Assembly: GCA_964508565.1 (NCBI GenBank)
Contig: CAZDUB010000005.1
Location: forward strand, 9,756-73,755
Reading direction: 5' to 3'
DNA length: 64,000 nucleotides
DNA from: an uncultured Elusimicrobia bacterium
GTDB lineage: Bacteria > Elusimicrobiota > Endomicrobiia > DTEH01
The notes beneath the pieces were generated by a model. That model did not search any database, was not told the DNA's origin, and saw nothing but the letters and a program-made list of their open reading frames with translations. Position 1 is the first letter of the stretch; each line of letters begins with the position of its first letter. The translations under genes and the position numbers were made by a program. Of this stretch, positions 23,336 to 59,046 are shown one piece after another.

Positions 23336-26300
23336 CTACCTGCGAACTCGTTTGTTTTAATACCACAGTTTACTACTGTCGTAGCTGGGACAAAGATACA
23401 GATTACTGTTAAAGCTGCGGATGTAAACGGTGATACTGCAAAGAATTACACTGGAAGAATAAGGTTTACAGTTGATGGTTTGTATCCATCAGGAGCAGGA
23501 CCTGAGTATAAATGGACAAACAGAGCATATCAAGCAGAAGAAGGTTGGTTACCTGATGACTATACATTTACACTTGCAGATAAAGGTGTAAAGACATTCT
23601 ATACAGTACTTGTTGATTCAGAAGCGGTTAATCTTGTCAAAGCAGGTGTAAGAACAATAAGAGTAACTGATATTCCAGGTGATGGTATAGGAAGAGACAA
23701 TATTACAGGTGCTACAACAATTACTGTTGTTCCTGCAGCACCTGAGAAACTAAGAGTGGTTGTTCCTGGTGTATCAAGAGCGGCTGGTGTTGTTGGAGGA
23801 CTTAGCGGTCTTCCTGCAATACAAACTGCAGGTGTATCGTTTGATGTAAAAGTTGATGCTTGTGATAGATACTGGAATGTTGTACCATCAACATCAACAA
23901 ATGTAAGGTTAAATGTTACTGCAGGTTCTGATCCTTACACAACATCACTTCCGCAGCAAAAACAACTTCTTGACGGTTCGGGTTTGCCTCAGGGGACAAC
24001 TACATTTACAATATTCTTTGTACAAAGAGGGAATCAGTGGTTAAGAGCAGAAGATATTGGTAACACAGGCTTCTTATCACATACAATACCACAACCTGTC
24101 CCTGTGAACCCAGCTACTGCAGTAAAACTTCAGGTTATATTACCCGGTGAAACAGCAGAATGGGGTAAACCTCCATATGATACACCAGCAGGTGGTAAGT
24201 TAGGTACACCTACAACACAAATTGCAGGACAAGCTTTTGCAGTACAAGTTAACGCTTGCGATTATTACTGGAACAGAAACGATGCTGTAAACCCAACAGT
24301 AAAACTTGTCACATCTGACAAATACGATGTTGAACCATCAACTTTAACCTTAGTAAACGGTACAACTACATTCTTTGTAACATTGGTTACAGCAGCGTCT
24401 TACTATGCTGAGCTTGGTAGAATGCTTACAGGAACAACTCATTACATATATGCTAATGTCTATGAAGGTATAAACTTATCCACTGGAGTATCCTCAGGTG
24501 TAGTTGTTTTACCTGCAGCTGCTGAAAAGTTGTTAGTAGTTGTACCTGGTGAGATTCCGGAACCTGGTTCTTCAACTGGTAAAGTTGGCATACCTGCTAC
24601 ATTTATAGCTGGTACTACATACTATATTGATGTGTATTTAGTTGACCAATACTTCAATGTACACTCAACTGCAACACAGCCAGTAGTTTCATTAGACATA
24701 TCTCCTTATCCAAATCCAGCAACTTCTATTGAACAAAATCCAGCTGAAGCACAGCTTGTTGAAGGCTACAGACAATTTGCAGTTAACTTCAAAGTTGCAA
24801 CTGGACAGACAAATGGCCCATCACAAAGAAATATTGTAGCAACTGATACAGGAGGTTCAGGGACAAGTTATACTGGATATACCACAACAGCATTGTATGT
24901 TTCACCTGATGTTATCTCTAAATTACAACTAATCGTTCCTGGTGAAACTGTACAACCAGGTATTCCTGAAGGAAAAACTGGTACTCCTACGCCGAGAACA
25001 GCTGGAGTGCCGTTTAATGTAACAGTAAGGTCCTGTGATAGGTTCTGGAACCACAATACAGCAGGAACTATGGAGGTTAAACTTCTAACCTCGGATCCTT
25101 ATGATACAGAACCAGTATTCAATTTAGTTTCAGGACAAAAGATACAGTCGTTGACACTACGTCGTGCAAGACCTACAGGTAATACACTTGACAATGTATA
25201 TGTAGATATTACAGCAGTTGAAACATCCACTACACCAGTTACTTCATCTCATACAGTTTCAGGTATACTTGTTAATCCAAACAATGCAACAAGACTACAA
25301 CTTATACTACCTGGTGAAACTGCAGAACCTGGCCATCCGGAAGGTAAAATAGGTACTATTTCACCAATTACAGCTGGTACACCGTTTACGGTAGTAGTAA
25401 ACTTAGTTGACAACTGGTGGAACAGAGTTGCGTTAGATGAGCCAACTGTAAGAATACAAACACCAAACGATCCTTATGATGTTGAACCTTCAACACAGAC
25501 ACTTCAAGCAGGTCAGTATGTATTTACAAACGCTGTAGCAATAGTTCGTGCTGGAACACATACTATAACTGTTGAAGATGTGGATGGAGTAGCACCACTT
25601 TATATCTCAACAACTTCAAAGAGTTTTTATGTTCCACCAAGAGCAGCATCACAACTACAAGTGCTTGTTCCTAATCAACAAAATGTTGCAGGAAACTGGG
25701 TTGGTTCTCCAAATGGGCAGGCACCTTATGGTAAAAACACAGCTGTTACTCAAACACAAACTGCTGGAGTACCGTTTACAGTTACTGTGAATGCATGTGA
25801 TACATATTGGAACATTACAACAACAAACACTGTCGTCTGGATACAAGTGATGAAGACAGCAGCAGAGATTGATCCGTATGCTGAAGTAGAACCTGGATCT
25901 GTTAACTTAATTAATACAGCAACATTTACAGTTGTTGTAAAAACAGCACAGACAAGAAGAATAAAAGTTACAGATGGTGATGCAGGACTTCTTGACCAAC
26001 TTGGTGAAGTTTTCAATGTACAACCAGCAGCACCTTCAAAGATATTTGTATTACTGCCCGGGGAGGCAGCAGAGCCTGGTTCGCCTACTGGCAAAACAGG
26101 TACACCTTTAATACAAGAAGCAGGTTATTCGTTTATACCAACAGTTCGTCTCGTAGATAACTACTTTAACCCAACAGCAGCTTCACAGGATATCACAGTA
26201 AGGTTGACAACGGAAGATCCTTATGATAGTTATACATATGGAAGTTATATTGATTGTATGATACCTACAAACAACACAGATGCTACACTTTCGGAATATC

Positions 26301-29300
26301 CAACACTTATAACAGCAACAACAATTGGTTGGAGAATCACTGCTGATGATATCTCACCCAATATTTATGAAACATATGTTACAGAAGGAGTGAAAGTAAA
26401 GCCAAGAAGAGACGAGGCGGGTTATGAAAGAAAACTTTTAGTTACTCTGCCAGGTGAAATTTCAGTCTGGGGTAAGCCACCATATAACACAAATACTGGT
26501 GGTAAGTCAGGTGCACCACAGGTAGTAACTGCTGGATTAACCTTCTCTGTAACAGTTTATGCATGTGATTACTACTGGAATAGAATTGATGATACATTAT
26601 TTAACATATCTCCACCTGAAGGAAATCCTGTAGTACAAATTGTAACTTCAGATCCTTATGACACAGAACCTTCAGCTGAACAGTTAGTTGATGGAAGAAA
26701 GATCTTTAACATCACATTGGTAAAAGCAGGAACATTTACAATCACAGCATCTGACATTGACGGCGTTGGAATTTATTATCAGCCCTACACAACGGTTATA
26801 TCAACTTGCCAGCCAAATGTTGCAGTGAAACTCTTAGCTGTTCTTCCTGGTGAAACTTATGTCCCAGGTTCTGCTACAGGTAAGACAGGAACACCGCAAG
26901 TGTTTACAGCAGGAGTACCATTTAATATAACTGTATACGGTTGTGATGCTTACTGGAACTTACAACCTAACGCAGTTGCGCTAATAAGAATCACTGATTC
27001 TGATATTTACAACTCAACACCTGCTGCAACTTCATTAGTCAACGGACAAGCAATAATACAACATACATTTGTCACAGCAGCTACACATTATATCCTTGTT
27101 GAAGATATTGACGACAGCCCGCTTGCAAGCTATACAGTTGCTGTTGTTACTGTTACAGCTAATGCACCTACAAAACTACTTGCGGTTCTTCCTGGTGAAA
27201 CATACAAACCTGGGAAATATAATATACTGCCTTATGGTAAAGATGGGACACCTACAACACAGACAGCTGGTGTTTCATTTGATGTAACGGTTTATGCTAC
27301 TGATGACTACTACAACAGAACTTCAACATTTGTAGCTGTTTGGATAAACACACAAGATCCATACGATGTTGAACCTTCAACACAAAACTTACTTGCAGGC
27401 ACAACTGTATTTAAGTTAACATTTGTTTCAGCAACAGATTCTTTGAACTGGAACAATGTTGGTTGGAACATAGCAGTTACAGCAAATACGAATTTACAAA
27501 CTTATACTTCAGCTAATATACCTGTTGTTCCGAATTCGTCAACATTGAATGATAGAATACAGGTATTACTACCTGATGAAGTTGCACGACCTGGTAAACC
27601 ACCATATACTGACTCAACTGGTGGTAAGGAAGGAACAGTACAGAATACCACAGCAGGTAGTGATGTTCTTGCAAGAATTTATATCACAGATTACTACTGG
27701 AACAGAAGGACTGATAATGTAACAAATATTAACCTGTCCTGTGTTGGTTTCCAGGACTATGAAGGAGATGGTAAAACACCTAAGTTTGTAACTTTAACAA
27801 ACGGTACATCTGAATATTATCTTGTGTTCCACACTACAGGTAGCTGGAATATAAATGCCACACATAGTGATTATTTAAGTTATAACAGCTCAGTTATAAA
27901 TGTAGCTCCTGCTGCTGCAAAGAAACTTTTGGTCGTACTGCCTGGACAAGAGATATCGCCACTTAAACAAGAAGGAAGAAAAGGTACACCACAAAATGCA
28001 ACTGCTGGCGTAGGATACAATGTTAAAGTTTATGCATGTGATGAATACTTCAACTATCAACCAGTAGAAGTTGCATCCTCAACAGTTCGCCTTACAACTT
28101 CAGACCAGTTTGACCAGGAACCTTCAAACCTTGTTTTGCAAAACGGTACAACTGTATTTACTATTATACCGGTAACCGCTGGGACACAGACAGTAACTGT
28201 AACTGACCTGACTTCACCAATTATGGTTCCAAATACTTCTTCAATATTTACAGTTGTACCAAACAGTGCAGCAAGGTTGTTAGTATTAGTTCCAGGTGAA
28301 ACGATATTGCCTGGTTCACTAACTGGTAAACAAGGAATACCTGTTATACAAACAGCAGGTGTTGCTTTTGGTTGTACAGTCTATGCAACAGATTTGTACT
28401 TCAACCCAACAACTGACAGAACTGACTGGGTAAGAATTGATACTTCGGATAAATGGGACATACATCCTTCAACACAACAACTTGTAAACGGAACAACAGT
28501 TTTCTTTGTTACATTTGTCACAGCAGGCGAGCAACAACTTTATGCAGTTGACACTGATGCTCCATATTTACAAACATCTACAAGTTCAGTTATAACAGTC
28601 CAACCAAAGACAGATGTTTTATCTGAACTTAAACTCCACATAATAGTACCAGGTGAGACATACGAACCTGGCAAATGGGAAAATGGTGTAAATCCTGTGC
28701 CTTATGGTAAGATAGGTTCACCTACACCACAAGTTGCTGGAAACAACTTTACAGTAGATGTTTATCTTGTAGATAAATTCTACAACAGGGTGTACTCAGG
28801 AGTACCAATGCCATGGGTACAATTGGTTAAAGTTGGAGATTACGATCCATACGCAATCTATCCTTCATCACAGCAGTTAATAAATGGTGCAACAACATTT
28901 GTGCTACAATTTAGAACTTCAGGTTGGGGACTAGTTCCTTCAAGTTGGACAATTACAGCAAGAGATATTGATGGTACAGAACCAGCATATCCTGACGCTG
29001 TATCGCCAAGAATAGTTGTGCAACCAAACATTGCAAAGAAACTGCAAATAATACTGCCAGGTGAAACATGGGTGCCTGGTTCAAATGAAGGTAAGACAGG
29101 TACACCTGAAGTTTGGGTTGCTGATTCAACAAGAACAATCACAGTACAAGTATGTGATGACTACTGGAATGTTACAAATACGAATATTACTGCTTTACTT
29201 ACAACTGAAGATCCGTTTGACACACCAGATCCGCAATCGTTGGGTATAACAAACGGAAGAATCTATGTTGACAGAAACTTAGTTACAGCAACAACTGATG

Positions 29301-32300
29301 GCTGGAGAATCACAGTTTCTGCTTCTGGTTTAATTGAATATGTTTCACCTAAAATTGTTGTAAATCCAGGCGAACCAGTGAAACTGCTTGCAGTTGTACC
29401 TAATGAGATATATTTACCAGGTTCGCTAACTGGTAAAACAGGTACAGTGGTACCACAGCAAGCAGGAGTTCCATTTACAATAGCTGTATATATCACAGAT
29501 AGCCGTTGGAACCTTGTAACCTCAACAGCAGCGTTAATACAGGTTGAAACTGAAGATCCATATGATATTACTCCTTCTGCTAAATCTACAACAAACGGTA
29601 TGGCTACATTTGATATTGAGTTCAGACGAGGTGTTGGTGAGCAATATAGGATCATCGTTTCAACTGCAGCAGGCAACAATTTACAAAAATATGTGACTGT
29701 ACCAATCCAGTCAAATCCTGGTCCAGCAACAAAACTGCAAATATTAGTCCCAGGCGAAACAGCAGTGCCTGGTAAGTGGGATACTTATGGTAAAATTGGT
29801 ACACCGAATGTCTGGTATGCTGGAGCACTTTATCCAGTAGTTGTGAATGTAGTTGACAAATATTGGAACCCAGTACCTACTGTTAACACAACTGTTAAAC
29901 TTACTGCTACAGATCCATACTACGAACCACCTTCTGATGCACCAACTACAAACGGTACAGTTACAATTTATACCTCACTTGTGACTGCGACAACTGAAGG
30001 TTGGAAAATAACAGCTTCAACTGCACCAGCTGCTGCAAATCCGTACTTAACTTCTGACACATCGCCTAATATCAGAGTATTACCAGGTCGTGCTGTGAAA
30101 CTTTTAGTTTTAGCACCCGGTGAAAAACCACTACCAGGTTCACCAATAGGTAAACAAGGTACACCTGTTGTTCAAGTTGCAGGTTCGTCCTTCACAGTAA
30201 CAGTACATGCAACAGATAGCAGATGGAATATCGCAGAATCTTCACATGTAATAAGAGTTACAACGGACGACTTATACGACACAGAACCCTCAACACAAGC
30301 ACTTATTACGACAAATGAATATTTAAGCATTGCGACATTTACATTAACACTTATAACAGCAAATCGTGGGCCGCTTGATCCGCAAAATAGAAATACAACA
30401 ATTACAGCACACGATGTAACTGAAGGTATATCTGATACCGAAAGATTAACTTCAGGGAATACCATTGTTCCTGTTTCACCTCAAGCAGCACAGTATCTAA
30501 TATTGTTAGTCCCAGGGCACACACATAATCCTGGTAAACCACCATATTATCCTGAAGTTGGTGGTAAAGATGGTACACCGCAGACACTTACAGCAGGAGT
30601 TACTTATTATGTCACCGTTGCAGCTTGTGATTTATACTGGAACATAAATCCAGCTCACAACCCACTTGTGAAAGTTTGGACTTCTGACCCATACGATACA
30701 GACCCCACACCGCTGGGGCTTGAAAACGGAATGAAACAATTCCCGATAAACTTAAGAAGGGCAACATTATATCAAGGTTTACAAGAATCTTTGACTATTT
30801 ATGCAATACACAATGCTGACCCACAACAATACGCAGCTGCACAGGTTGGTGGTATACAGGTTTCGCCAGAGCCTACAGCGATACAACTTTTAGTCCTTGT
30901 ACCTGATCAACAACACGAACCAGGTTCAGTTTTGGGCCGTACCGGGCCCGTATCACAACAGGTTGCAGGTGTTGGATTTGATGTAAGAGTATATTGTGTT
31001 GACAGGTTTAACAACATTGTACCTATAGCACAACCCGGTGTAACACTTACATCTTCTGACCCCAACGACGGTGTTGGTGCTGAAACAGGTATTGGCTGGG
31101 ATCCAACTTATCAACCATTACTTAATGGAACAACTGTATTTAGAGTTACACTTGTGACAGCTTCAACCTGGCATTATCTTACTGCTGAAGATACTGATGG
31201 TAATCCACCATATTATGGAAGAAGAGATTCGTCTTTAATATATGTAAATCCGGGACCCGCAGTTAAGCTACAATGCTTACTACCAGGTGAAACACCAAGA
31301 CCTAATACTACAAGAGGTAAAGAGGGCACACCTCTTACCCAAGTTGCAGGTCAACCGTTTAATGTGACAGTCAAAATCACAGATATACTCTGGAACTTAG
31401 TACCTTCAGCAGGTGCAAATGTTAAACTTATAACGCCTTATGACGACTATGATGATGAACCCACACAGTCAACAGTGAATGGTGAAGCAGTAATTGAAAA
31501 AGTTATTTATACTGCATCACAAGAGAGGAATGATACAAATCCACCATATTGGGAACCTTATAAATACCATATAATTATAGCAACAGATACTGGTGGATTG
31601 TACTTAACAAATGTTTCTTCAACATTTACTGTTACTTCTTCAACATTTACAAGGTTACATGTGATACTGCCTGGTGAGAAATATGTGCCTGGTAAACCAC
31701 CATATTATGGTAGCGGCGGTAAAGAAGGAACACCAGTTGTACAAACAGCAGGTGTACCTATCTCTGGTGGGACAATTATCAGGTCAGGTACTACAATTTA
31801 CTTCAATGTAGCTGTCTTTGCAGTTGATAATTACTACAACTTAGTATATTCAGGACAACTTGTTTCTATACAAACAACAGATCCTTATGATTCACATCCG
31901 TCCCCACAAGCGCTGAATTTAGGTTATGTAAACTTTGCAAATGTTGCAATGGTGACATCTTCAAGTTGGACTATAAAAGCATCTGCTTCTGGTGTGTCAG
32001 ATGGTATATCCTCTCCTGTGTTCATTAGACCTAATGTTCCATCAAGGTTAGCTATTTATGCACCAGGTGAGATACCAACTCCTGGTTATACTGCAGGTAG
32101 AGGTAGAACAGGCACTCCTATCCCACAAACAGCAGGCTTAACATTTGGTTGTACAGTTTATGTCTGCGATGCGTATTATAACCCAACATCTTCAGAACCA
32201 GTTGTTACATTAAAAGTTGATGATTGGGATATAGATAATCAGGTTTATAGAATCATAAGGACACAACAACTTATTCAAGGTACTACTGTATTCTTTATAA

Positions 32301-35300
32301 AGTTAGCAGCAGCAAAGATTTCTGTGGCTTCTGTTACAGCAAGCGGTTTAGCAATGGATTATACTGGTGGTATACAAGTAAATCCTTCTACACCTTATAG
32401 GTTATTAATACTACCTCCTGGTGTAACAGCAGAGCCTGGAAAACCACCATATGTTTCTTCAGAGACAGTTACAATGGGTGGTATAAACGGAACGCCATTA
32501 GCACAAACAGCAGGTGTCCCATTCAACATTACAGTTCGTGCGGTTGACCAATGGTGGAACAAAACTTCAGCACAGCCAATAGTAACACTTGAATCAAACG
32601 ACCCATGGGATTATCCTACACAACAACAGGTTCAACTTGTAAACGGTGAGTATACTTTAAGTTGGACACTTGTTACAAGAAATGATACTGGTTGGTATAT
32701 AAGAACAGCGAACTCTGTTTCACCAACACTTGTATCTTACAGAACTGCAAATATACCTGTAGTTTCTAACACAGCAACTTCACTTAAGATTTATCTACCA
32801 GGAGAGTATCCAGAATGGGGTGAAACTTCAAGTAATCCTTCAGCAACAGTACCTTATGGGATATCTGGTATACCGCAAGACTGGACCGCAGGTGTACCAA
32901 GACAAGTTGTAGTTGCAGCGGTTGACAACTGGAACAACAGAAACGATAGCGATGTTTCGCCGGTGAAACTCACACCAACAGATCCGTTTGTTTCAGCACA
33001 GACATATGGATTAACTAATGGTTCTGCAACATTCACATTTACATTAGTTACAGCAGGCACACATACATTTGTTGCAGAAGACCAAGAAGCCCCGCTGCTT
33101 AATTCTTATTGTTCTTCAGTATTTACAGTAAAAGTTTCAACCTGGGGTAAACAGCTACATATAACCTTACCAGGTGAAACATATGTCCCAGGTCGTCCAC
33201 CATATGATGTTGATGAACAAAACAGGATTGGTGGTAGTGGGGGTAAAACAGGTACGCCATTAGTACAGACAGCTGGTGTACCATTTGTGGTAACAGTTCG
33301 TGCAGTAGACTCATTCTATAACTTGCTTACTGATGAAGTTTCGCTCGTAAGAGTAACACCTTCAATTTCAAACTACGCAGCTGACATTGGCCAGCCTTAT
33401 GAAGGATACATAGTTGAACCGCAAGAACAATCATTAGTTGGTGGTGTTTCAACATTTACAGTAACACTGCTTACTGCACACTCAACATGGACACTTACAG
33501 CAGAAGATGTAGATGCAACTCCTACACTTGCAAAAGGTCGTGCAAAGGTTTATGTCAAACCTAACAATCCAGTGAAACTTCAAGTGATTGTACCTGACGA
33601 GGTTGAAAATCCAGGTTCATCTTTTGGTAGAATAGGTTCAGTTAGAACACAAACTGCAGGTGTTGGATTTACAATAAAGGTGAACCTCTGTGACCAATAT
33701 TGGAACCGTGTAAAAGAAGGTTCAATGCCACTTGTTTCTATCTGGAGTTCTGACCCGTATGATGTGCATCCAACAGCGTTAACACTTGTAAATGGTCAAA
33801 GGTTGTTTAATGTAACACTTGTAACTGCTTCTTCAGTAACAATTACTGCGTCTGGTGGTGGATATACTATCGGAGTTTCTTCACCTATACCTGTCATACC
33901 AAATGTTCCAGCAAAACTCCTTGTTGTTGTACCACCACAACAACAGGTTAATGGTAAAAATAACTCACCTGAAGGTAGAACAAATGTTGCTGTATCTACA
34001 CAGACAGCAGGTGTACCGTTCCAGGTGCAAATCTATGCAGTTGATAACTACTACAACTTTGTCTCAACTGTAAACCAAACAATTACAGTTACAACTTCTG
34101 ACGATTACGATACAGATCCTGGCAATGTCACAATGGTAAACGGTGTTACTACTGCTACAATTGATTTTAGAACCGCAAAACCACAAACAATAACGGCAGT
34201 GGATAATGATCCTAACAGTCCAAACTTACAATCTCATACTTCATCTTTGATACCTGTACAACCCAATGTCCCAAAGAAGTTACATATTTGTGCAGCTGGT
34301 GAGGTTTATGATCCGGGCAGGCCTCCATATATACCTGGTTCAGCTGTTGGTGGCAAACAAGGGACACCGTCAAACCAAACAGCAGGTACTTCGTTTAATG
34401 TTGTAGTAAGAATTACGGATGATTATTGGAACTTAACTTCTGTTTTACCTTCAGGAGTAACTGTACAGATTAACACAAACGATATTTATTCGCCATCTAA
34501 TAATACACAATTTGTATTGTATTCTTCAGCTGTAATTTCTGTAACTTTAGTCTCAGCATCTTCATCTACTGCTGATAAAGTTATTTATGTTGAAGATATT
34601 GACGGTGTTGACCCAACATTATCTTTAGGTAGGACACAAAACATATTTGTAGGGCCTGGAACACCAACAAAACTATTGCTTGTCTTACCAGGACAGACAC
34701 TTGTAGGTGGCCATCCAAGAGGTAAAATTGGTACACCACAAGTTATAACAGCAGGGCAACAGTTTACAGTGACAACAGCTATAACAGATGCTTACTTTAA
34801 CCCTGTACCTGGTGTCTCTGTAACATTACAAGCTGACTCACCACTTGACAACTATGATTCAGAACCTTCACCTAAAAATGTAGACACTGTTACAGGTAGA
34901 CAATACTTTGATTTCACACTTGTTACAGCAGCAACACATTACTTAAGAGTACGCGATGTTGACGGTGTACCCCCACTTTATCAAGAGTATCCAGCAAATC
35001 CTTTAGATCTTGTTGTTTCCACATTTACAGTAAAACCAGCAAATGCTGTAAAACTTCAACTTATATTACCTGGTGAAACACCAGTTGCTGGTAAATACAA
35101 TGTTGCACCTTATGGTAAGACAGGATATCCTACAAACCATGTTGCAGGTGAGTTGTGGTATGCAACAGTTAGGTTAGTAGATGCTTATTATAACTTAGTA
35201 ACAGATGTTTCACCACAACCTCAAGTTGCAGTACGCACAGCTGACCCGTTTGATATAGAACCATCTACAGAACCATTGACTTCAGGTCAAGGTGTATTCC

Positions 35301-38300
35301 CAATCGTGTTAAGGACAGCAGCAACCTGGCACTACTTAGTTGCTGAAGATGTGGACGGTATTGACCCACAATATCAGTCAGATGCTTCACCAATGTTTAC
35401 AGTAGAACCTTCAACACCTACAAGGTTATTAGTACTTGTACCAAATGAGACATTTGTCCAAGGTTCACCTTATGGCAAGACCGGTACAATTCAAGATTAT
35501 GTCGCAGGACAAAGTTTTGTTGCGACAGTTTATCTTGTAGATGAATACAACAACCGTGTACGCAGTGGCTGGCCAATGCCAAATGTTGGCATTACAACTT
35601 GGGACCCAAAAGATTCTGAGCCATCTCCAAAGATATTAATTGATGGTGCAAACAACTTTACCTTAACACCACTACATGCATCTTCATCTTGGACATTAAC
35701 AGCATGGGATGTTGACGGACAAGAACCCTATTATCAACCAGGTACCTCTTCATTTATCCGTGTATGGCCTAATGTTGTGCATCATATGCATATTGTTGAT
35801 TATCCAACTACAGTAGTAGCTGGGACTGGTTTCTCAGCAAAGGTTGTTTTGTATGATCAATATGAAAACATCGTCTCAACAGGTATAAATTGGGGGAATT
35901 ATGCAAACGCTGGTTATAAAGTAAAATTTGACGGTGAATACTTCACACCGCCACAAACGCCAGAACTGCCAAGTGAATATGATTGGGTTGTATCTGATTA
36001 TGGACAGAGAACATTTAGTGGTATAGTATTAAAGAAAGCAGGACCGAGATGGATTAAAACATATCAAACAAATCCGCTAAATACAACTATATCTTCAGAA
36101 CGGCCTTGTGATCCTAACCCAAACCGTACAGGTGAAGAAGGAGAACACGGATCATTGTATACATACATTAATGTGCAACCAGGACCTCCTGCAAGCTTCT
36201 TTGTAGTTGAGTCTACAGCAACAGCCGGAACTGAGTTTTACGCATACGAAGTTAAAGTGCCTGCAGGAACGAGGTCTGACTGGGGGAAAATTCAGGTAAT
36301 AGCATATCTCTCAGATGCTTACGCTAATATTGTACCATCAAGTGGTGTCCCGGTACAGATAGAATTAATAGAAGTTGTAGGTTCAAGTGGAGTTGTTTCT
36401 TACACTTCGCCGGCTTCTGATTCTACCCTACCTGAACCTGTTTACTATGCGATAACAGATTCTTCAGGTGTTGTTGGTCTTAACCCACCATTGTATTACT
36501 ATATGTCACATAAACTTGGTGATTCAGCGAAAGTGAAGTTCTCAACTGGAACAATTGTTGGTACAACAAGAAAAATAACTACCATTGGTGGAACACCATA
36601 TAGATTAGTAGCATTGAACCCACCGACAGAACTTACAGCAGGTAACGAAACTCCATATATTGTTATCCAAAGAAGAGACGAATTTGATAACCCAACCTAT
36701 CAAGGTGACACCTGGGCACAACTTGTTACAAATTCGCTTGCAAAACAACAACAGCCACAAAGACAGTGGGATTTCCGCAGTGCATCTGGTGCTGATAATA
36801 CACTTGGACCTGATTATGTAATATGGTTCTACAACTCAATTAAATCAACTTCAGTTGCAATAATTTACTACGATGAGATGTCTTCAATACCTGAAGGTGA
36901 AGATGGTAGACCTTCCTCAGGTAAGTGGACCATACAAGCTCAAGCTTTTGGGAATGACCCTGCACGATGGGCAACATTTGACTTGTTAGTAAAACCCGAT
37001 GAGATTGTAAAAGCAGCGTTTGACAATCCACAAAGAAAACTAACCGCTGGTTCACCTAAAGAATATACAGCAATAGGACCCGGTCCTAATGCTTTAGAGT
37101 TTGAAGTTGAACTACAAGATAGGTGGAACAACCCTGTCCGGACAACATATACAGTGACTGTATTACTATCTTCTGTGCGTCAACCATCAAGGTTTAACGA
37201 TTCGTATTCATTCTCGTTATCAAGTCGTGTAGTTGGTGGTCCAGCATACGGCACACCGCCTTTATTTGAAATACCAATTACTTCTTTCACAATAAATGCT
37301 GGAGAGTATTACAAACAGTTCTACTACCTTGATACAAACGCTTCAGAAAACTACGGAATTGCTCCAACTACACACCCTGTTATTGTTGCTACGCCTTTAG
37401 GACAAAAAGGTGATGGTACACCTTGGGTTGCAGCTCAACAATCGGTTTTGATTATGTCGGACAGAATCCGTCGTATTGGTATTTACGGAAAATATTCTAT
37501 ACCGCCAGATACTACATATTTACAAACACTTACAGCAGGTGTAACTTCACAAGCATTTATGCTTGCTACAGAGGACTTCTATGGCAACATTGCACCGATA
37601 CTTGAAGCAGACCTTTCAGGTGATAATCCAAGAAGAATAAGAATAGTTTCCACATCTACTGGTACTGTACAGTTTGCAGTAGGTTCAACTACTACATGGA
37701 CTATAGGCGAAGGTGTAGCATACTTTAAATTAGGCGACAGAACCACAACCTTCTATCTCATAGACACACTTGCTACTGTCCGCTATGGTAGATATGATAC
37801 CACTCATACACTATATGCAGATACTGTTGTAAATCCCGGTATGTGGACAATAGGAACTAGACCTTATAGAGTACTCCCTAACATAGCACACCATCTTGTA
37901 GTGACCACACCACCAAGACGGCTTATTGCTGGCACCACCATACAATTTGACGCTACAGCTTCCGACACATCCACAACTACAGTTTCAGCAAAAGGTGGCC
38001 CAATGGTTATTACAAAGAACGGTCAGCCGACATTTACGGGAATAACCGTACAGATAAGAGACGAATTTGAAAATGTTACAATTTCTACAGAAAACATAGT
38101 ACTATTAGCTGAAGTTTTAGACTCCCCACAAGCGTATGGTTCAATAGACCCAACACAAGATTTGGACAGTGCTGGTTGGACGCTTATGACAGGTGGTGGG
38201 AATATGTTGAATATGTTGTTACCTGCTGGTAATGAGAGCATTACATTTTACTATTTTGATACTGTTACTGGAAGCCATACAGTAAAAGTGTCTGGGAAAA

Positions 38301-41300
38301 CCGCATCTGGTAGAGACATATTACCGCTTTATCAACAACACTACATAACACCAGCTCCAATACAATACTTTACTATCCATCATCCTTTCACACTTTCAAA
38401 TCCGCTTCGTGTACACGAACCAGGCTTACTTACAGTTAAAGCAAGAGATAGGTATGGTAATGTTGCCTCAGGCGATTCTATCAATGGTCAGTGGTATACA
38501 GGTACAATTGTATTTTCACATTCAGGAAATCCTGAAAAAGTCACATTAAAAGATGCATTGAATCTAACTACATATTATACATTTGTGAAAGAAGATGCTG
38601 GAGTATATAACAGATTGCAAATTATTGACCAGATACAGGAAACACTTAAAGTGTTCGTTACTGATTATGCAACAATACAATTGCCAGATGAAGAGCCTAA
38701 CAAGATATATGGGTTTACAGGTGATACATTTAGAGAAGTACCTGTACATTCTGACGGCGATGTTATAACCTGTGGTATAGTGGTAGAACCAGCAGATCTT
38801 GCACCGGTACCTTATGGTGATGATGACAATCCAGAGACTACCTGCGATGATAGTTATGATAAAAAACAAGAATTGCTTGAAGGTACTATCTATCAAGGTA
38901 AGACAGCACTATTTCAAGGAGATGGAAACACCTATGAAAAACCGGCAGCTGTACCTATGTTGCGTTTAAACTTAAGAGTACTACCACCTACCGTAGCAGA
39001 AACAGCAACATGGACACAACTAAGAGTAGATAAAAAAGGTACTGCTTTACCACAGGATGTATGGATTGGATTGTACTACGATGCTAACGGGGACGGTAAA
39101 TTCCAGGGCGAGACAGTACTAGGTGGTACATCACCTGACCCGTTAGTAGCCGTGGGCGAATACGATTCTATATCAAATGCTTGGTTGTTCAAGAATATGT
39201 CGGAGTTCATTTCTGTGGTTTCAAAAAACTACTTCTTATGTGTACGAATCTCTACCGTAGCACAGCCGGGCACATATCTCGGATTAGAAATAAACAATCA
39301 CAACTATCTAACAATGGTAGGTGTGGCTCGTGTAGCAGCAAACAACTTTAGCATATTTACAGACACCTCTGCTATAAAGAGAGAAGAGGCAAAAGTAGTT
39401 TGTGTTGCAGAAGACATTGCTGCTTCGGTTGAGACAACGAGGTCTACAACTGTTTATCAAGGTCAACCTAACGCTGGTATGCTAAGAATAAAGATATGGA
39501 CAAAAGGTTATACTGCATATCTTAACGGATTTAAAATTACACGAACAGGAAGTGGCTACGATAGTGATATAAAAGGTGTTGCATTGTTTATAGATGATAA
39601 CGGTACAGGGGACCCATCTCAAGGTGATGGTATATTCCAACCAGCGTTAGACCGTCGTGTATCTGATTGGGTGAGTTTCTCCACAAGAGCAGCTTTAGTG
39701 TATCTAACTACTACACAAGAGATTTCTCCTTCAACAATTACATATTTTGTTTCATACAAAATTGCTGATTCAGCTTATATAGGTAAGACACACGGAGCTG
39801 CTATAGTTGATGCAGCAGATATAAGATTAGGAGAAGGCGTTGTTTTACCAATACCAGGTTACAATTCTTCTTTAGTAACAGTAATCCCAACTTCAGATGA
39901 AATGAATCTCGTTGATTATAATAAGACACAACCCAACAACTTCTCAATACCTGGTGCTGCAACACAAGGTGATAAAGATGTAGTAGTTGCAAGATTGACG
40001 CTGCAGACATTACAGCGTACAGCAATATGGACAGGATTAAAACTTGACAGATACAATCCAAACAAAGTAAACCAGCCAGAAGATATAGAAAACATAAAAG
40101 TTTACTACGATACTAATGGGAATGGTTTGTTTGACAAAGACATTGACCAACTTGTATCTCCAACTGACAGAAAATATACCTTCCCAGTAACAAAGCTTAA
40201 AGTAGATGTATCGTCCACAGCATCTACTATTTATGTAGAAGATGTATCAAAACTTGTACTATCACCAACAATTGATTTCTCACCATTCCCAGAAACTCCT
40301 GGAAGAGTGGTATTATCTGATGGCTCTGAGAATTTAGAAGTTGTATACTTTAGCGGTGTAGACAGACAACAGAATGCTCTTACAGGATGTCTAAGAGGAC
40401 AAGAAGGTACGCAAGCTCGTTATCATCCAGCGGGCTCAAAAGTTTCAGGTCAGGCAGTGTTGTGGATACTTGGTAACTTCTATGACTTAGGATCTTACAG
40501 AGTAGGACAAGAGATTTTATCTGAATATCCAAAAGATTACTTTATAACCGTTGATATAAGTTATCTTGCAAAAGTACACGAAGCGTCCCAGTTAGGTATA
40601 TCAATAAGGTCTACTGATTATTTCAAAGTAGTAGAACCTGACTTTGTCGCAAACAGGTTTGGTATAATAGGTCCGAAACCGCAAGGTAAATCAGAGTCCG
40701 GTATAGGTTCTATAATGGAATATCCTGATAAAGTTACATTCAAGTTTGTAGATATATCTACAGAAGTTGTAGCTTATCTACAACAGGGAAAAACAAATGT
40801 ACCAGTTGCCGCAGTAGTAGTCTACACAGATCAATCAGAAGCTTGGTGGCAACAACTTAATGTATGCGGAATAGGTACAGCAACAGATAACAACTTATTA
40901 ACTGACGAAATAAAATATGTTAAGATTTGGTATGATGTAAATAATAATGGTTATTTAAACACGGATACAGATATATGTATAGCAACAGCCACATTCGGCA
41001 ATGTAGGAAAACCACTACTATCGCAGTTTGTCTTCCCTGTTGCTCCAAAAATAGTAACACAACAAAGAGCACAATCTGAACGTATATCTCAGAGATACTT
41101 CATAGCAGTTGACATTGAAGAAAACGCATATCCAGAACAAACATTTGGAGTTGCTATAACAACAGTTACAGATATTACAGTATCATTGCCAAACTATGTA
41201 GACACTTCTTCATCAACTATACCATTTGAGACAGTACTAAGAACAATAATACCTTCTCCAAGAATGGTCACAGTAGATGCGCAACCACTCTGGCTTGATA

Positions 41301-44300
41301 AAAATGGCAATGTTATTACTCAACCAATAAAATTAGCAGCACCTATTACAAATGAGGATACAGCAATCCCACTCAATATCTCAGCAGTTGACTATAACTT
41401 GCCGGAATCAGGGTATGTAGTAATGGATAATGAAATAGTTATATATTCAACAATATCTTACCAAGGTTTATTAGGAGTGTCTCGTGGAGTAGAGGGATCA
41501 TTTGTTGGTAGTCACTCTTCAGGTAGCCTTGTAGGATTCTCTGTAGTACAAGGACAGAAAAATGTTCCAATGTTGAAGTTAGTAATGTACTGTAGTGGAT
41601 TCCAAGTACAGCTACCATCTATTAAGTTTGTAAGGACACAACCATCTCCACTTAATGGTGATGATGCAGATATTGCAGCAATTAAAGTCTGGAGAGACAA
41701 TGGAGATGGTGTACTTAATAGAGATCCACAAACCGGTTTCATTTCAGTCGATGTAGAAACATTAGTAGGGCAAGCTAAATTTGGACAATCACCAGACCCA
41801 ACCGCTTCTGCTACTGTTTTACTTAACGATCCGCAATACAATCGTGGTTATGTATTAATAACTACAACACCTACAATTTACTGGGTAACAGTAGATATAT
41901 CACCATCTGCTAAATTTACACATCCACAGATTTCTAACTTAAACGAAGTGTTTGGTATGAATATTCCATTACCTACAAACTTCAACTTAGCGCCTAAAGA
42001 AGCGGGCCACTGGATATCAACATCAACTTCATTAGGTACACCTTCATTCCCAATACAGACACCTGTTCATGCGATAGTCCCCACAGTAGATACATTGATT
42101 GTAGAAGGAGAAGGAATACTTCCTCCTGGAGTTTACCAGAACCAGAAGAATGTAGGAGTATTAAGATTAAACTTCAAAGCAAATAAGAATTCAGTCACAA
42201 TCAAAAAAATCAAAGTAAAAATGGATGGGACAGCTGTGGATGGGGATATAGCATTAGTTAAGGTTTGGAAGGATCTAAACAATAATGGTATATTTGATGT
42301 TGAAGATACTACTAGAACAGCTAAAGGAGAATATCCGGGGCTGATATCTTTTGGTACAGATAGACTCTCAGACAAAGTTGTAGATATAGAGTTAAAAACA
42401 CCTCAAGTTGTAGACGATTCTCCTACAGGCACAAACTTGTTTATAACATTTGACATTGCAGAGTTTGCAAGATTATTCGCAAAATTCTCTGTTTCAATAG
42501 AAGATGAAAGCTATATTACAGTAGAAGTACCAGATAATGTAGAATTCAAAGTTAAACCGATTGTTTCTGGAGAATCAACAATATATGAAGCACCATCACA
42601 AGTTATAGCTCGTGTATATGATTATGCAAAGGATATAGCCAATCAAGGTGGAACATATCAAGCAGAGAAAAATGTGCCTGTATTAAGAATCAAGATGAGA
42701 ACAGATGTATCACAAGCATACTGGACAAGAATAAGATTAGAAAAAACAGGTTCTTCTTCTGATCCGTCTTTACCTTATGGTAAAAATACAGATGTAGGCT
42801 ATATTAAGATATACAAAGATGTAAACTTCAATGACCAACTTGATTCTGCTGATACATTGTTAAACGAAATACAAACAGAACTTGTAGTTGATATATCTTC
42901 AGTTACAAATCCACCATTCTTGATGGTTATAAAGTCTTCTGTGTCATCAGTAGGTATATTCCCACAAAATCAGCCACAGCTATGGGTAAAAGTAAACGAT
43001 GAAATATTTGAATACACAAAAATAACCACAACCACAATAGATTCGGTAGAATATCCAGCACTTTATATTACAAAGAGAGCACATTTAGGCACATATGCTG
43101 CTTACCACTCTTCAGGAAGTATTGTAAGAAAATGTGATATGTATTACTTAAACGACGATCTTAACAGACAAAAAGAAGTTACACTAATTCAACCGCAACT
43201 TATTTCACCAACGCCACAAACATACTTTATCGCTTACGATATAGGTGAAAATGCTATATCTGGGAACGCTGTTGGTGTAAAGATTATTGGTAAAGAAGCA
43301 ATAACCATAGAATATCCTAACGAAGCGTCTCCTATGGTAGAAATTGAGCAAGATTTCAATGGTACAACCGTAGAAAATGCTTTTTATCCTTATGAAACAT
43401 CACTAATAAGAATAAATCCTATAAATGTATACATTACAGCAGAATCAGTTGCTCCTGTACAAGTACCTCAAAGAACAAAGAATGTACCACTTATGATGGT
43501 ATCTATTAATACCGATAGAAACTACATAACAGTAAAGAAAATAAATATTACCCAAACAGGAACAGTTCAAACTCAAGGAGCAATTGGTGGTTATGGCCAG
43601 GGTGATTTATCAGCAGTTTCTCTATGGTTAGACAATGGAGATGGTTTCTTCTCACCAGTGCTTGATATGTTTATTACTTCTGTTACACATCCTACTGTTA
43701 ACTTTAGTGGAGGAGCAGCAAGGTTTACTTTGCCGGATAAAGGGTTGTATATATCCACATCACCTGTGAGATTATTTATAGTAGGTGATATAGGCAAAAC
43801 AGACCTTGCAGGTACCTCAACTAAAGACCACTATGTTGGAGTAGAGATAACTTCATTTAAGTCATTAGAAATAATACCTAATACTGTAGAATCAGTAATT
43901 ACAAACAAATTCCCATTGAGGTCGTCTTTAGTTTTGATTCTTGACGAATATGCACCAAGGGTAATGCCAAGATGGGTTGTCCTTGCGGAAAAGAAAGTAT
44001 GGGTAAATCCATTTGGAGACGGATATCCAGCAATTGATGTAGACGGCGATGGAAAACCTGACCGAGTTAATAGAGACGGAGAAGTGTTTATAGACATTGA
44101 TGGAGACGATGTAAACGACCTTGAAGATTTAGATGGAGATGGCCGCAAAAACGATATTGATTTAGTTGGTGATGGTAAACCTGCAATAGATATGACAGGC
44201 GATGGATTGTTAGATGTTGATTTAAATTGTGATGGCAAACCTGACTCAATAGTACCGGATGTTAATGGCGATGGAATCCCAGAAGTTGATTTAAATAGAG

Positions 44301-45729: not shown

Positions 45730-46356
45730 ATGAAAGTAAAGAGGTTATCTTTATATTTTTTGCTATTTTTTATATTTTGCATCGCAACATTATTTGCTCA
45801 ACCAACTCAATACTCAGAAAAATCAATTTTTAAAGGCTTACCCAAAGGATATTATGCAGCAATTATAACAGATTTTGGACCCATAGTATTTGAACTATAT
45901 GAGGACAAAGCGCCAAAAACAGTAAAAAATTTTGTAGACTTAGCTTTAGGTAAAAAAGAATGGATTGACCCAAAAACAGGTAAGAAAGTAAAAAAAAGAT
46001 TTTATGATGGATTAATTTTCCATAGAGTAATACCAAACTTTATGGCACAAACTGGTTGCCCAAAGGGTGACGGAACAGGTGGCCCTGGTTATGAGTTTGA
46101 GGATGAGTTTAGTCAAGATTTACTTTTTGACAGACCAGGCCGCGTAGCAATGGCAAATCGTGGACCGAATACAAATGGTTCTCAGATTTTTATTACTGTA
46201 GTGCCAACTCCATGGTTGAACATGAGACACACAATTTTTGGACAAGTTGTGAAAGGCCAAGATGTAGTAGAGAGAATTGTTTCTGTACCAAGAGACAGTA
46301 AAGACAAACCGTTGAAGCCAATTTATATAAGAAAAGTTTTGATTAAGAGAATATAA
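45730..46356 (+). CDS. Secreted cyclophilin-type peptidyl-prolyl cis-trans isomerase
   Basis: 208 aa. It has an N-terminal signal peptide ([23 protein letters not shown]|QP). Cyclophilin motifs are [39 protein letters not shown] and HTIFGQVV. The RBS AAGGGGA lies about 7 nt upstream. Confidence 0.9.
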
Positions 46357-52550: not shown

Positions 52551-52793
52551 ATGAAGTGTCAAAATTGTGGTTTTGTAAACAAACCAGAAGCAAAAAATTG
52601 CAAAAAATGTGGGAAACCTTTAATTGTTGAACCTCTATGGAAACCGTCTTTTAAATGGCATCTGAAAGTTTTAGCTGTAATATATGTTGTTTTAATAGTT
52701 TTGTTTTTTTTACTTAACCATTTATTAAAACCATATATGAGACAACTTCCTGCAGAAATTACTCCTTGGTTACATCAAAATGAAAAAAAATAA
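52551..52793 (+). CDS. Small zinc-ribbon membrane protein (hypothetical)
   Basis: 80 aa. A CxxC...CxxC ribbon (CQNCG...CKKCG) is followed by one hydrophobic helix (LKVLAVIYVVLIVLFFLL). There is an RBS-like AGAGG upstream. The 3' end overlaps kdsD by 14 nt. Confidence 0.5.
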   Translation: MKCQNCGFVNKPEAKNCKKCGKPLIVEPLWKPSFKWHLKVLAVIYVVLIVLFFLLNHLLKPYMRQLPAEITPWLHQNEKK

Positions 52794-53757
52794 GATAAAA
52801 GAAATAATAAATATAGCTAAAAAAGTTATATTAACAGAAGCGCGCCAGGTAGAATTGCAAATAAAACACATAAACCAGCAGTTTGTAAAAGCAGTAGAAT
52901 TAATATCTTCACTTGAAGGCAAAGTAGTGGTATTAGGGATAGGGAAATCAGGTTTAATTGGCAGAAAAATTGCTGCTACTTTTTCCTCGTTAAACATTCC
53001 TGCGGTATTTTTGCATCCTATTGAACTTCTACATGGCGATTTAGGTTTGATAAGAAAAGAAGATGTAATTTTAGTTTTGTCCTACTCTGGAGAAACAGAA
53101 GAAATAAATAAAGTTTTACCTATACTTAAAAGTTTTGGAATAAAAATAGTTTCTTTTACAGGCAATAAAAATTCAAAATTAGCTAAATTTTCAGATATAA
53201 CAATCACTACAAAGATACAAAAAGAAGCTTGTCCTTACGATTTGGTACCCACATCTTCTACTACTGCTATGTTAGCATTGGGAGATGCTTTGGGGATTAC
53301 TGTTGCTGTTCTTAAAGGATTTAAAAAAGAGGATTTTGCAAAAGTTCATCCTTCAGGTAGTTTAGGCAAACAATTAACATTAAGAGTTAAAGATATAATG
53401 AGAAAAGGGAAAGAGGTTCCTAAAGTTTTTGCCACCACTAAAGTTAAGGATGCATTGTTAGTTATGACATCTACAAAATTAGGGGCAACAACAGTGGTTG
53501 ATAAAAATGGTAAACTTATAGGTTATTTTACCGATGGTGACCTTAGAAGATATGCACAAAAAATAGATAATATATTAAACATTGAAATTGAAAAAGTTAT
53601 GACAAAAAATCCTAAATCTATAACGGCTGATAGATTAGTAGTTGATGCTAAAGAATTAATGAAAAAATATAACTGTGATAACTTACCAGTAGTTGACAAA
53701 AATTATAAAGTCATAGGCATAATTGACGAAAGAGATGTTTTACAAGCAGGTATATAG
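52780..53757 (+). CDS. kdsD: Arabinose-5-phosphate isomerase (KpsF/GutQ/KdsD family; SIS + 2 CBS domains)
   Basis: 325 aa. The SIS motif reads GKVVVLGIGKSGLIGRKIAATF...HGDLG. The C-terminal tandem CBS domains read VMT....TI and NLPVVD....IGIID..DV. It is followed by kdsC, as in the E. coli locus. Confidence 0.85.
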   Translation: MKKNKIKEIINIAKKVILTEARQVELQIKHINQQFVKAVELISSLEGKVVVLGIGKSGLIGRKIAATFSSLNIPAVFLHPIELLHGDLGLIRKEDVILVLSYSGETEEINKVLPILKSFGIKIVSFTGNKNSKLAKFSDITITTKIQKEACPYDLVPTSSTTAMLALGDALGITVAVLKGFKKEDFAKVHPSGSLGKQLTLRVKDIMRKGKEVPKVFATTKVKDALLVMTSTKLGATTVVDKNGKLIGYFTDGDLRRYAQKIDNILNIEIEKVMTKNPKSITADRLVVDAKELMKKYNCDNLPVVDKNYKVIGIIDERDVLQAGI

Positions 53758-53760
53758 GTT

Positions 53761-54303: not shown

Positions 54304-54305
54304 TT

Positions 54306-55178: not shown

Positions 55179-55182
55179 TCTA

Positions 55183-57090: not shown

Positions 57091-57094
57091 GAGG
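57089..57094 (+). promoter_or_regulatory. Shine-Dalgarno site (AGGAGG) for hpf, overlapping the lptB stop codon
   Basis: AGGAGG at 57089-57094 overlaps the TAG stop of lptB (57088-57090). It lies 8 nt upstream of the ATG at 57103. Confidence 0.7.
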
Positions 57095-57102
57095 AACAAA
57101 CT

Positions 57103-57630: not shown

Positions 57631-57690
57631 AATTTGTATATAATAAAATTAATCTGACATAAATATAACATTGATAGAAAGGAGCAAAAA

Positions 57691-58149: not shown

Positions 58150-58152
58150 TGT

Positions 58153-59040: not shown

Positions 59041-59046
59041 AAGTTT

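Follow-up and report, generated by a model that had tools for sequence, protein, structure and literature searches.

We analyzed a stretch of 64,000 nucleotides (nt), hereafter the window, from an uncultured Elusimicrobia bacterium (GenBank assembly GCA_964508565.1, contig CAZDUB010000005.1, positions 9,756 to 73,755), in which a single giant gene carries an array of 32 tandem modules that we call zone B. On the evidence of sequence alignment, each module is a Big_1-type immunoglobulin-like (Ig-like) domain with about 26 residues added N-terminal of the T.AG motif. The C-terminal ~80 residues of the module are homologous to Big_1, and the fold is not a new one. The addition includes a hairpin, and zone B is probably a rod-like extender of a giant surface protein in which the hairpin of each module clasps the module before it.

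A giant protein with a zone of 32 modules

The gene is a single open reading frame (ORF) that encodes 15,150 amino acids (aa) inside the window. Its 5' end lies open at the window edge, and the whole protein is therefore longer. Its parts are as follows:

56 to 45508, plus strand: giant ORF carrying repeat zone B (ORF call; orthologues under purifying selection)
56 to 23395, plus strand: zone A, ~7,780 aa, another, mutually related Ig-like repeat type (self-comparison map; weak or summed Pfam and NCBIfam matches)
23717 to 35767, plus strand: zone B, 32 tandem Big_1-like modules with an N-terminal PGE..PG..GK.G.P hairpin (seed search, profile, model, hhalign)
35768 to 45241, plus strand: zone C, ~3,150-3,250 aa, mostly non-repetitive, candidate distal or functional part (self-comparison; Pfam and NCBIfam scans)
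45242 to 45463, plus strand: C-terminal domain resembling FlgD_ig and the C-terminal domains (CTDs) of type IX secretion system (T9SS) cargo, with the motif NYPNP...GGWDG...GGYIAQI (sub-cut-off matches; motif)

A phmmer search of the translated ORF with one module (module 4) as seed gave 32 matches, all within aa 7891-11871, and an iterated profile recovered the same 32 copies at 80-163 bits each, with nothing significant elsewhere in the 15,150-aa protein. The units are found exclusively in aa 7888-11904 and are 113-141 aa long, with a mean of 125.5 aa, or 376.6 nt. These figures reproduce the copy number and the ~376-nt period given in an earlier note on this DNA, which had been made from the sequence alone, and our unit boundaries lie close to the extent it proposed (23735-35770). 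Pairwise identity between copies is 23-49% (median 35%), and the copies are thus too diverged for Tandem Repeats Finder, which reported no repeat on the DNA. The three loop length classes and two odd copies described in the note were also recovered: 15-16 copies have a short loop, eight a G(K/R)PPY...GG(K) loop and six or seven a ...(P/T)YG(K/I) loop, with two odd, and the counts agree apart from copy 32 (SPYGK), which is ambiguous between two classes. The modules, all on the plus strand, are listed below:

23717 to 24094, plus: module 1, short loop; degenerate, PGV...GL
24095 to 24496, plus: module 2, GKPPY...GGK loop
24497 to 24889, plus: module 3, short loop
24890 to 25261, plus: module 4, short loop; phmmer seed
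25262 to 25621, plus: module 5, short loop
25622 to 26008, plus: module 6, ...PYGK loop; PNQ replaces PGE
26009 to 26401, plus: module 7, short loop
26402 to 26797, plus: module 8, GKPPY...GGK loop
26798 to 27142, plus: module 9, short loop
27143 to 27514, plus: module 10, ...PYGK loop
27515 to 27892, plus: module 11, GKPPY...GGK loop
27893 to 28243, plus: module 12, short loop; first half of the two-module model
28244 to 28588, plus: module 13, short loop; modelled alone
28589 to 29008, plus: module 14, ...PYGK loop
29009 to 29350, plus: module 15, short loop
29351 to 29701, plus: module 16, short loop
29702 to 30067, plus: module 17, ...TYGK loop
30068 to 30463, plus: module 18, short loop
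30464 to 30850, plus: module 19, GKPPY...GGK loop
30851 to 31234, plus: module 20, short loop, GR
31235 to 31621, plus: module 21, short loop
31622 to 32014, plus: module 22, GKPPY...GGK loop; 14-aa extra insertion after AG
32015 to 32368, plus: module 23, odd loop, GRGRTG
32369 to 32749, plus: module 24, GKPPY...GGI loop; PGV paired with GI
32750 to 33121, plus: module 25, ...PYGI loop
33122 to 33544, plus: module 26, GRPPY...GGK loop; longest unit, 141 aa
33545 to 33883, plus: module 27, short loop, GR; shortest unit, 113 aa
33884 to 34246, plus: module 28, odd loop
34247 to 34639, plus: module 29, GRPPY...GGK loop
34640 to 35020, plus: module 30, short loop
35021 to 35392, plus: module 31, ...PYGK loop
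35393 to 35767, plus: module 32, short in length, SPYGK

Kinship of the module with Big_1

The suggestion that no named family covers the module was borne out by domain scans. Pfam-A gave no match on zone B above noise even at E<=1 and NCBIfam gave none, the sub-threshold noise consisting of Inhibitor_I42, Tla3_N, MucBP_2 and Glyco_hydro2_C5. Big_1 itself (PF02369, gathering threshold 34.9 bits) did not match the 4012-aa zone or a 627-aa sub-stretch even at E<=1. Pfam is likewise blank on close homologues, homologues built solely of zone B-type modules have no Big_1 match, and the Pfam Big_1 matches in relatives fall on separate classical Big_1 domains, not on hairpin-bearing modules. PF28243, precomputed on some relatives, was rejected as an existing family for the module, as it is DUF6701_2nd and the match is faint. 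A sequence-profile search of the PDB gave no significant match; the best, to FUS1p (9qs0, E = 0.005), runs over the AG...D.Y.N strands, and monobody matches in the PDB sequence search were set aside as a chance resemblance to TVYA.D.YW.

Profile comparison nevertheless places the module beside Big_1, in agreement with the earlier impression that its Q.AG..F.V.V.a.D..N core is invasin/intimin-like. Positions 32-114 of the module profile (residue numbers such as E19, K31 and D52 are positions in this profile of the module alignment) fall exactly on the Pfam Big_1 stretches of homologues P0056, P0079 and P0082, at 23-47 bits per domain. When the Big_1 repeats of P0056 were cut independently and aligned with the 32 copies by hhalign, the probability was 98.7%, with E 4.7e-16 and 35% identity over 81 columns. 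Lined up by eye, the Big_1 unit reads A.A..FVLSGLP-ATATAG.P..FTVTA.D.FGN...G.V.ITS.DP.A.LP....L..G.G.FTVTLKTAG..T.TA.D and the module reads P.AA.KL.VLLPGE..(PG...GK.G)TP..QTAG..F.VTV.A.D.YWN.....V.L.TSDPYD.EP....L.NG...F.VTLVTA....ITA.D. The Big_1 positions A40, G41, D52, N56, D71, P77 and G85 are conserved in both; in the module, G55 of Big_1 is replaced by W, F or Y and the L of LP is not conserved.

AlphaFold2 (AF2), run on module 13 with the 32 copies as alignment, returned an all-beta model of 8 strands with a predicted local distance difference test score (pLDDT) of 96.7 and a predicted template modelling score (pTM) of 0.88, in which two additional short strands form a hairpin after the A strand. 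Against the PDB, Foldseek matched this model to generic Ig-like domains (best E 2e-3, template modelling score (TM) <= 0.64, probability 1.00), with TM 0.56-0.64 to the Ig-like domains of glycoside hydrolase family 2 (GH2) enzymes and with intimin D0-D1, filamin and MG domains also listed. A Foldseek search of one module against BFVD found several phage "Big-1 domain" proteins, again generic Ig-like.

By descent, then, zone B is a relative of Big_1 within the E-set Ig-like superfamily. It shares with Big_1 (found in invasin, intimin and many large surface proteins) the homologous core T.AG..F.VTV.A.D..xN...V.(I/L)TS.D....P....L..G...F.VTL.TAG...(I/V)TA.D and the habit of forming long tandem arrays in secreted or surface proteins, and the two module types co-occur in the same proteins. 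It differs by its N-terminal addition, KL..LPGE..PG..GK.G.P, which makes a strand, a PGE turn, a hairpin and GK.G.P; by its length, ~125 aa (113-141 aa) against a Big_1 period of ~99 aa; and, in the zone B lineage, by an acidic and aromatic DPYD.EP loop in place of D(P/G/A)xAxLP. We do not file it as a plain Big_1 member, because it fails the Pfam Big_1 threshold, differs in length and carries an extra structural element. The earlier view of a possibly undescribed module thus stands as far as names go, since there is no Pfam or NCBIfam model and literature searches found no description; its fold is not new, and its core is Big_1-homologous.

Orthologues and distribution of the family

Zone B is real coding sequence under purifying selection. 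When one genome per GTDB species was scanned, two relatives emerged with 85% identity across modules 4-5, in metagenome-assembled genomes (MAGs) of an "uncultured Elusimicrobia sp." and an "uncultured Endomicrobia bacterium". The three orthologous sequences, taken with 3-kb flanks, are collinear over 2244 aa without stop codons and are 81% identical, with synonymous divergence (dS) of ~1.1-1.4 and a nonsynonymous to synonymous ratio (dN/dS) of 0.11-0.13. Orthologous modules are far more alike (81%) than paralogous ones (35%), which indicates that the array is old and that each position in it has been individually maintained.

The family extends well beyond these genomes. An exhaustive profile search of 1.84 billion representative proteins gave 7521 matches, 3837 of them at E<=1e-10 and 992 at E<=1e-30, most without a Pfam domain over the matching stretches. 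Among the best 150 homologues, 120 have "full" matches (profile ~2-117, period ~125 aa, 1012 copies) and 30 have "core-only" matches (profile ~32-114, period ~99 aa, 563 copies), the latter being ordinary Pfam Big_1 proteins. Relatives occur in MAGs labelled Eisenbacteria, Latescibacteria, Elusimicrobia, Planctomycetota, Proteobacteria and Bacteroidetes, and public records call them only "hypothetical protein" or "FlgD Ig-like domain containing protein". Complete homologues (P0055; P0237 from an Eisenbacteria MAG) begin with a signal peptide and have modules from the first mature residue, followed by classical Big_1 and a FlgD_ig-type C-terminus. In P0237, P0211 and about 100 similar ~1000-aa proteins (from MAGs labelled Eisenbacteria, Latescibacteria and others), hairpin-bearing modules alternate with core-only ones, the signal peptide standing first and one classical Big_1 and the FlgD_ig C-terminus last; such proteins offer a compact and complete setting for studying the module. 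At the locus of homologue P0013 (ENA ERZ25039471 contig_109, 434,690 bp), same-strand genes of 979-1452 aa with no Pfam matches surround a 194-aa module-bearing ORF, and the locus may represent a comparable giant surface protein that is broken up or spread over several genes. Elusimicrobia are known for a high propensity for huge proteins (PMC11573180).

Conserved residues, the hairpin and its probable salt bridge

The motif list of the earlier note stood up to counting. Across the 32 window copies, the L of K-L is present in 30, the P of PGE in 31 and its E in 24, the G of GK in 32 and its K in 24 (R in 5), the A of AG, the D of D.YWN and the N of D.YWN in all 32, the D of SDPYD in 29 with Y, F or W in 30, the P of EP in 28 and the G of NG in 28; L12, P17, G24, G33, G41, D71 and P77 are near-invariant. 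Family statistics, drawn from the 1012 full-module and 563 core-only copies, separate what is special to the module from what is not. D52 (99% of full and 98% of core-only modules), N56 (97/96%), D71 (86/84%), P77 (73/89%), G85 (93/98%) and L82 are common to both, so the D..N, (S/T)D, P and L.NG positions, which had been taken as marks of the module, are equally conserved in ordinary Big_1 repeats. Specific to full modules are L12, P17 (90%), G18 (86%), P23, G24 (92%), G30 (92%), G33, E19 (E 73%, Q 21%) and K31 (K 64%, R 12%, V 6%), and position 55 is aromatic in them (W 53%, F 20%, Y 15%) where Big_1 has Gly (61%). SDPYD.EP is a lineage-specific feature, its positions being P 37%, Y 31% or N 28%, D 32% or A 41%, and E 13% or L 25% across the family. 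Of the two motifs said to lie outside any named family, the PGE/GK.GTP loop does mark the full modules through their hairpin, and SDPYD.EP marks this lineage.

Two further sequence details deserve mention. A single Cys stands in "A-C-D", directly before the invariant Asp, in 10 of the 32 modules (module residue 49 or 55, depending on loop length) and in 8% of copies family-wide; as it has no conserved partner Cys, it is not a disulfide. LPGET was rejected as a sortase LPxTG motif, since its residues come in the wrong order, it lies internally and recurs, and the host is a diderm.

We applied mean-field direct-coupling analysis (DCA) to the 1012 full modules. The strongest couplings are D52-N56, 13-21, 13-49 and, in fourth place, E19-K31, followed by 18-35, 21-49, 22-32 and 20-32/33, a pattern that fits the AF2 strands A (11-15), A' (19-21) and A'' (31-33, in profile numbering). 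In addition, the hairpin-tip residue G24 couples to D52 and N56, Y73 to A40, V42 and V94, and positions 6-13 to 53-58. Across the family, E19 occurs with K or R in 90% of cases and Q19 with V/I/L or K/R (odds ratio ~20), and the window pairs are E-K in 21 copies, E-R in 2, Q-R/K in 5, V-L in 1 and V-I in 1. Such pairing of E with K or R, together with swaps of V with L or I, is what a contacting ion pair replaceable by a hydrophobic pair would show, and not a covalent bond. As far as covariation can tell, the Glu of PGE and the Lys or Arg of GK appear to form a salt bridge.

A different role for these residues, raised in the earlier note in its isopeptide form, would be self-generated intramolecular isopeptide (Lys-Asn/Asp) or ester cross-links that stabilize each module, as in Gram-positive pilins and adhesins. 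Cross-linked adhesins such as Spy0128, Cpe0147 and the Mobiluncus mulieris adhesin are likewise giant, with tens of Ig-like repeats and conserved Lys, Asp, Glu and Asn (PMC10619420), and the window copies do conserve K31 and E19 (24/32 each) and D52 and N56 (32/32 each), with a weak coupling (1.26) between K11 on the first strand and position 55, which adjoins N56. The lysines, however, are replaceable: K11 is K in 20 window copies, R in 7, Q in 3 and another residue in 2, K31 is K in 24, R in 5 and I or L in 3, and family-wide K11 is K in 48% and R in 25% and K31 varies as given above, Arg and Val being incapable of the bond. E19 and K31 covary as an ion pair, V-L and V-I swaps included, and D52 and N56, which are as invariant in ordinary Big_1, couple to each other as the staple of an i/i+4 turn present there too. 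Known bonds join the first and last strands (PMC10619420); in the zone B module, Asn, Asp and Gln are all without a conserved position on the last strand. The close fold matches include neither pilin, CnaB or Cpe0147-type structures nor the adhesins just named, and a diderm host also speaks against such bonds. We therefore regard cross-linking as highly improbable. The related idea that the conserved Lys, Asp, Glu and Asn converge on one site also fails, as covariation resolves them into separate pairs and clusters at the two poles of the domain.

Proposed packing of successive modules

Evidence for how modules meet comes from inter-module DCA over 741 adjacent module pairs, with pairs of module n and n+2 as a control. 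The leading couplings were:

L16 of module n with I2 of module n+1: 3.4
Y73 of module n with K25 of module n+1: 1.71
A96 of module n with P23 of module n+1: 1.69
Y73 of module n with G24 of module n+1: 1.29
V94 of module n with Y54 of module n+1: 1.24
G41 of module n with Y54 of module n+1: 1.06

All of these drop to <=0.33 in the control, where same-position subfamily couplings persist (30-30, 1.88 vs 1.73). The adjacency-specific couplings set three elements of one module (DPY loop, AG segment, LVTA loop) opposite three of its successor (hairpin tip, Y54, linker). The L16-I2 coupling and the AF2 model (strand E119-122) agree that the first residues of a unit are the last strand of the preceding fold. 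A two-module AF2 model (modules 12-13) reached pLDDT 95.2 and pTM 0.87, with linker pLDDT of 96-98; Foldseek found no solved tandem with the same arrangement in the PDB (best TMq 0.46). Between orthologues, PGE (0.93), SDPYD.EP (0.90), positions 93-100 (0.90) and the hairpin tip (0.86) all exceed the module mean of 0.80, and acidic residues of one module are enriched opposite K25 of the next (D74-K25, 46 observed vs 29 expected; E76-K25, 28 vs 12).

In the model that we favor for zone B, each ~125-aa module is a Big_1 sandwich with an extra strand (KLxVxL), a PG turn and a beta-hairpin, (E)Txx-PG...G-(K)xG, whose two strands are pinned by the salt bridge between E19 and K31 or R31. The hairpin tip, where the loop-length classes differ, would lie at the N-terminal pole beside the D-x-x-x-N turn and dock on the C-terminal pole of the preceding module, formed by the SD-P-Y loop, the Q.AG segment and the L-V-T-A loop, and the last strand of each fold would be supplied by the first 4-5 residues of the next unit. 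Fixed head-to-tail packing of this kind would yield a stiff rod, keeping the protein's distal parts at a distance from the cell. Tandem Ig-like repeats serve as a rigid extender in MpAFP, where four region II (RII) repeats span ~190 Å (PMC4083281), and by analogy with that spacing 32 modules at ~4.7 nm per Ig domain would measure roughly 150 nm. The carrier would be a giant cell-surface protein of a diderm bacterium related to Elusimicrobiota/Endomicrobia and bearing lipopolysaccharide (LPS). What the analysis itself demonstrates is the anatomy of the array, its Big_1 kinship, the added hairpin, the Glu-Lys and adjacency-specific couplings, a confident two-module model and purifying selection; rigidity, rod length, surface location and the extender role are all properties that we infer.

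Several points weigh against this model. The interface geometry comes solely from covariation, pTM and secondary structure, and the family is known from sequence and models alone. Copies within one protein are not independent, which inflates the covariation statistics; the inter-module scores of 1.2-1.7 are modest, and the control reaches 1.1-1.4, though only among near-invariant positions. The alignment behind the two-domain pTM contained only paralogous pairs. Because the window lacks the N-terminus of the protein, export has to be read from homologues, and the matches to the C-terminal domain lie below curated cut-offs.

The same interface could instead be a metal site, with the acidic residues at the poles (D71, D74 and E76; D106 and D108 of D.DG; D52 and N56) binding Ca2+ where successive modules meet. 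Rigidity would in that case depend on Ca2+, as it does in MpAFP RII, SiiE and cadherins, and this could co-exist with a hairpin clasp. Ca-rigidified Ig tandems are an established mechanism (PMC4083281), and many window copies have the residues (D71 in 29, D74 in 22, E or D at 76 in 17, D106 in 20, D108 in 14). Covariation also puts the SDPY loop of module n beside the hairpin tip of module n+1, itself coupled to D52 and N56, and the enrichment of D74 and E76 opposite K25 places these acidic residues at the interface. That enrichment, on the other hand, suggests charge pairing with Lys and not metal. Across the family D74 is only 32% D (A 41%), E76 13% E (L 25%) and D108 18%; a Ca site therefore cannot be a family property. 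D52, N56 and D71 are common to Big_1 repeats, for which no such site is implied, and a PDB profile search found no sequence match to any Ca-binding BIg structure. We judge calcium bridging unlikely, though less so than the other alternatives considered here.

Alternatively, the modules may be ligand-binding units, for example for a glycan or a protein, with the hairpin tip and the Y-W pair as the site and the loop classes as specificities. The protein is probably on the surface, the three length classes include aromatic and Pro-rich insertions, and the nearest fold matches are Ig-like domains of GH2 enzymes and MG domains. Positions 54 and 55 (Y-W), however, couple to the A strand, the linker and the preceding module (6-54, 11-55, 13-55, 94(n)-54(n+1), 41(n)-54(n+1)), so that the pair would be buried at the interface and not exposed. 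Orthologues agree best in the interface elements, which speaks against a variable ligand-binding loop: the hairpin tip stands at 0.86 and the inserts at 0.76 against the module mean of 0.80, with no diversifying change seen. Every one of the 32 positions also has its own conserved orthologue, as in a structural array. Ligand binding thus seems to us quite improbable, and a rod built by the hairpin clasp remains the reading we prefer.

Other parts of the giant protein

The repeat of zone A is a second Ig-like family, unrelated to that of zone B by HMMER. Its tiles each match 5-50 other places inside aa 1-7780, and summed weak Pfam matches point to Big_13, Big_3_2 and Big_7, with an NCBIfam match of OmpL47-type (barrel). 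Zone C has no significant match in Pfam or NCBIfam, GEVED alone appearing below threshold, and is likely the functional or distal part of the protein. An FN3-like stretch lies between it and the C-terminus. The last ~100 aa resemble FlgD_ig and T9SS C-terminal domains; the Pfam FlgD_ig score is 20.5 bits, below the cut-off of 27, and NCBIfam gives a partial match of 21.8 bits to the C-terminal part of PorU, with the NYPNP...GGY motif visible. A gene next to one homologue carries Por_Secre_tail.

The giant protein is rich in T, V, P, G and A, with proline at 8.4%. Guanine plus cytosine (GC) content falls from 0.39-0.40 in the giant gene to 0.27-0.31 in the genes downstream. This step might suggest a foreign origin, which we ruled out: GC at third codon positions (GC3) is similar (0.21-0.25 in the giant gene vs 0.18 downstream), and the strong differences are confined to first and second positions (GC1 and GC2), so the step reflects amino-acid composition and not horizontal transfer.

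Neighbouring genes and host

The giant gene is followed by housekeeping genes, among them an exported cyclophilin, dnaJ and rsmE, and then by a block of LPS genes:

45730 to 46356, plus strand: cyclophilin-type peptidyl-prolyl isomerase whose N-terminal signal peptide is clear; 222 nt separate it from the giant gene upstream; dnaJ is next
52780 to 60033, plus strand: kdsD, kdsC, lpxL-like acyltransferase, lptC, lptA-like, lptB, hpf, ptsN (EIIA-Ntr), rapZ, yvcK/CofD

The cyclophilin-dnaJ order also occurs on a Logan contig, and the exported cyclophilin may be a dedicated folding helper for the giant proline-rich protein. The LPS block indicates that the host is a diderm. Enterobacteria have a cluster in the order kdsD-lptB-rpoN-hpf-ptsN-rapZ, which the window order mirrors; there is no rpoN between lptB (ending at 57090) and hpf (starting at 57103). 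Rfam and tRNA scans of the window gave no match.

Comparison with other Ig-like proteins and significance

In function, zone B most resembles the extender regions of giant adhesins, MpAFP (MpIBP) RII and the BIg domains of SiiE. In these, too, a giant diderm surface protein consists largely of tandem Ig-like repeats, dozens of which form a long rod that projects a distal region; the rigidity comes from the inter-repeat junctions (PMC4083281; PMC6272769). They show no detectable sequence similarity to zone B. Their repeats are near-identical and rigidified by Ca2+, and the proteins are exported by a type I secretion system, whereas the zone B copies are diverged, the junction is apparently a protein-protein clasp, and the C-terminus is FlgD_ig/T9SS-CTD-like and not RTX. 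Another likeness is to the gamete-adhesion Ig-like domains of FUS1 and GEX2 (filamin/Big_1-like). FUS1p shares G.P....AG....T..A.D.Y.N with the module, and relatives have faint Ig_GEX2_N and Filamin matches; the FUS1p match reaches only E = 0.005 and is confined to core strands B-C, and the protein is eukaryotic and lacks the PGE hairpin.

The zone B module is a useful, unannotated variant of Big_1 that deserves a domain model; it is not a new kind of biology and would be no surprise to a specialist. More tentatively, these modules might constitute a distinct, so far unmodelled Big_1-derived Ig family whose clasp hairpin makes metal-independent rigid rods, in surface proteins that number in the thousands and come from several phyla, most of them uncultivated, a broader proposal that we hold with less confidence than the extender role itself. 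If the clasp is real, Ig tandems would have a third way of becoming stiff, in addition to Ca2+ bridging and covalent cross-links, and the module could serve in the engineering of rigid protein spacers. With a large share of this protein of over 15,000 aa accounted for as stalk, attention shifts to the unannotated zone C as its likely functional part. One new model in the E-set clan would annotate much of the sequence now called hypothetical in the giant proteins of uncultivated bacteria.

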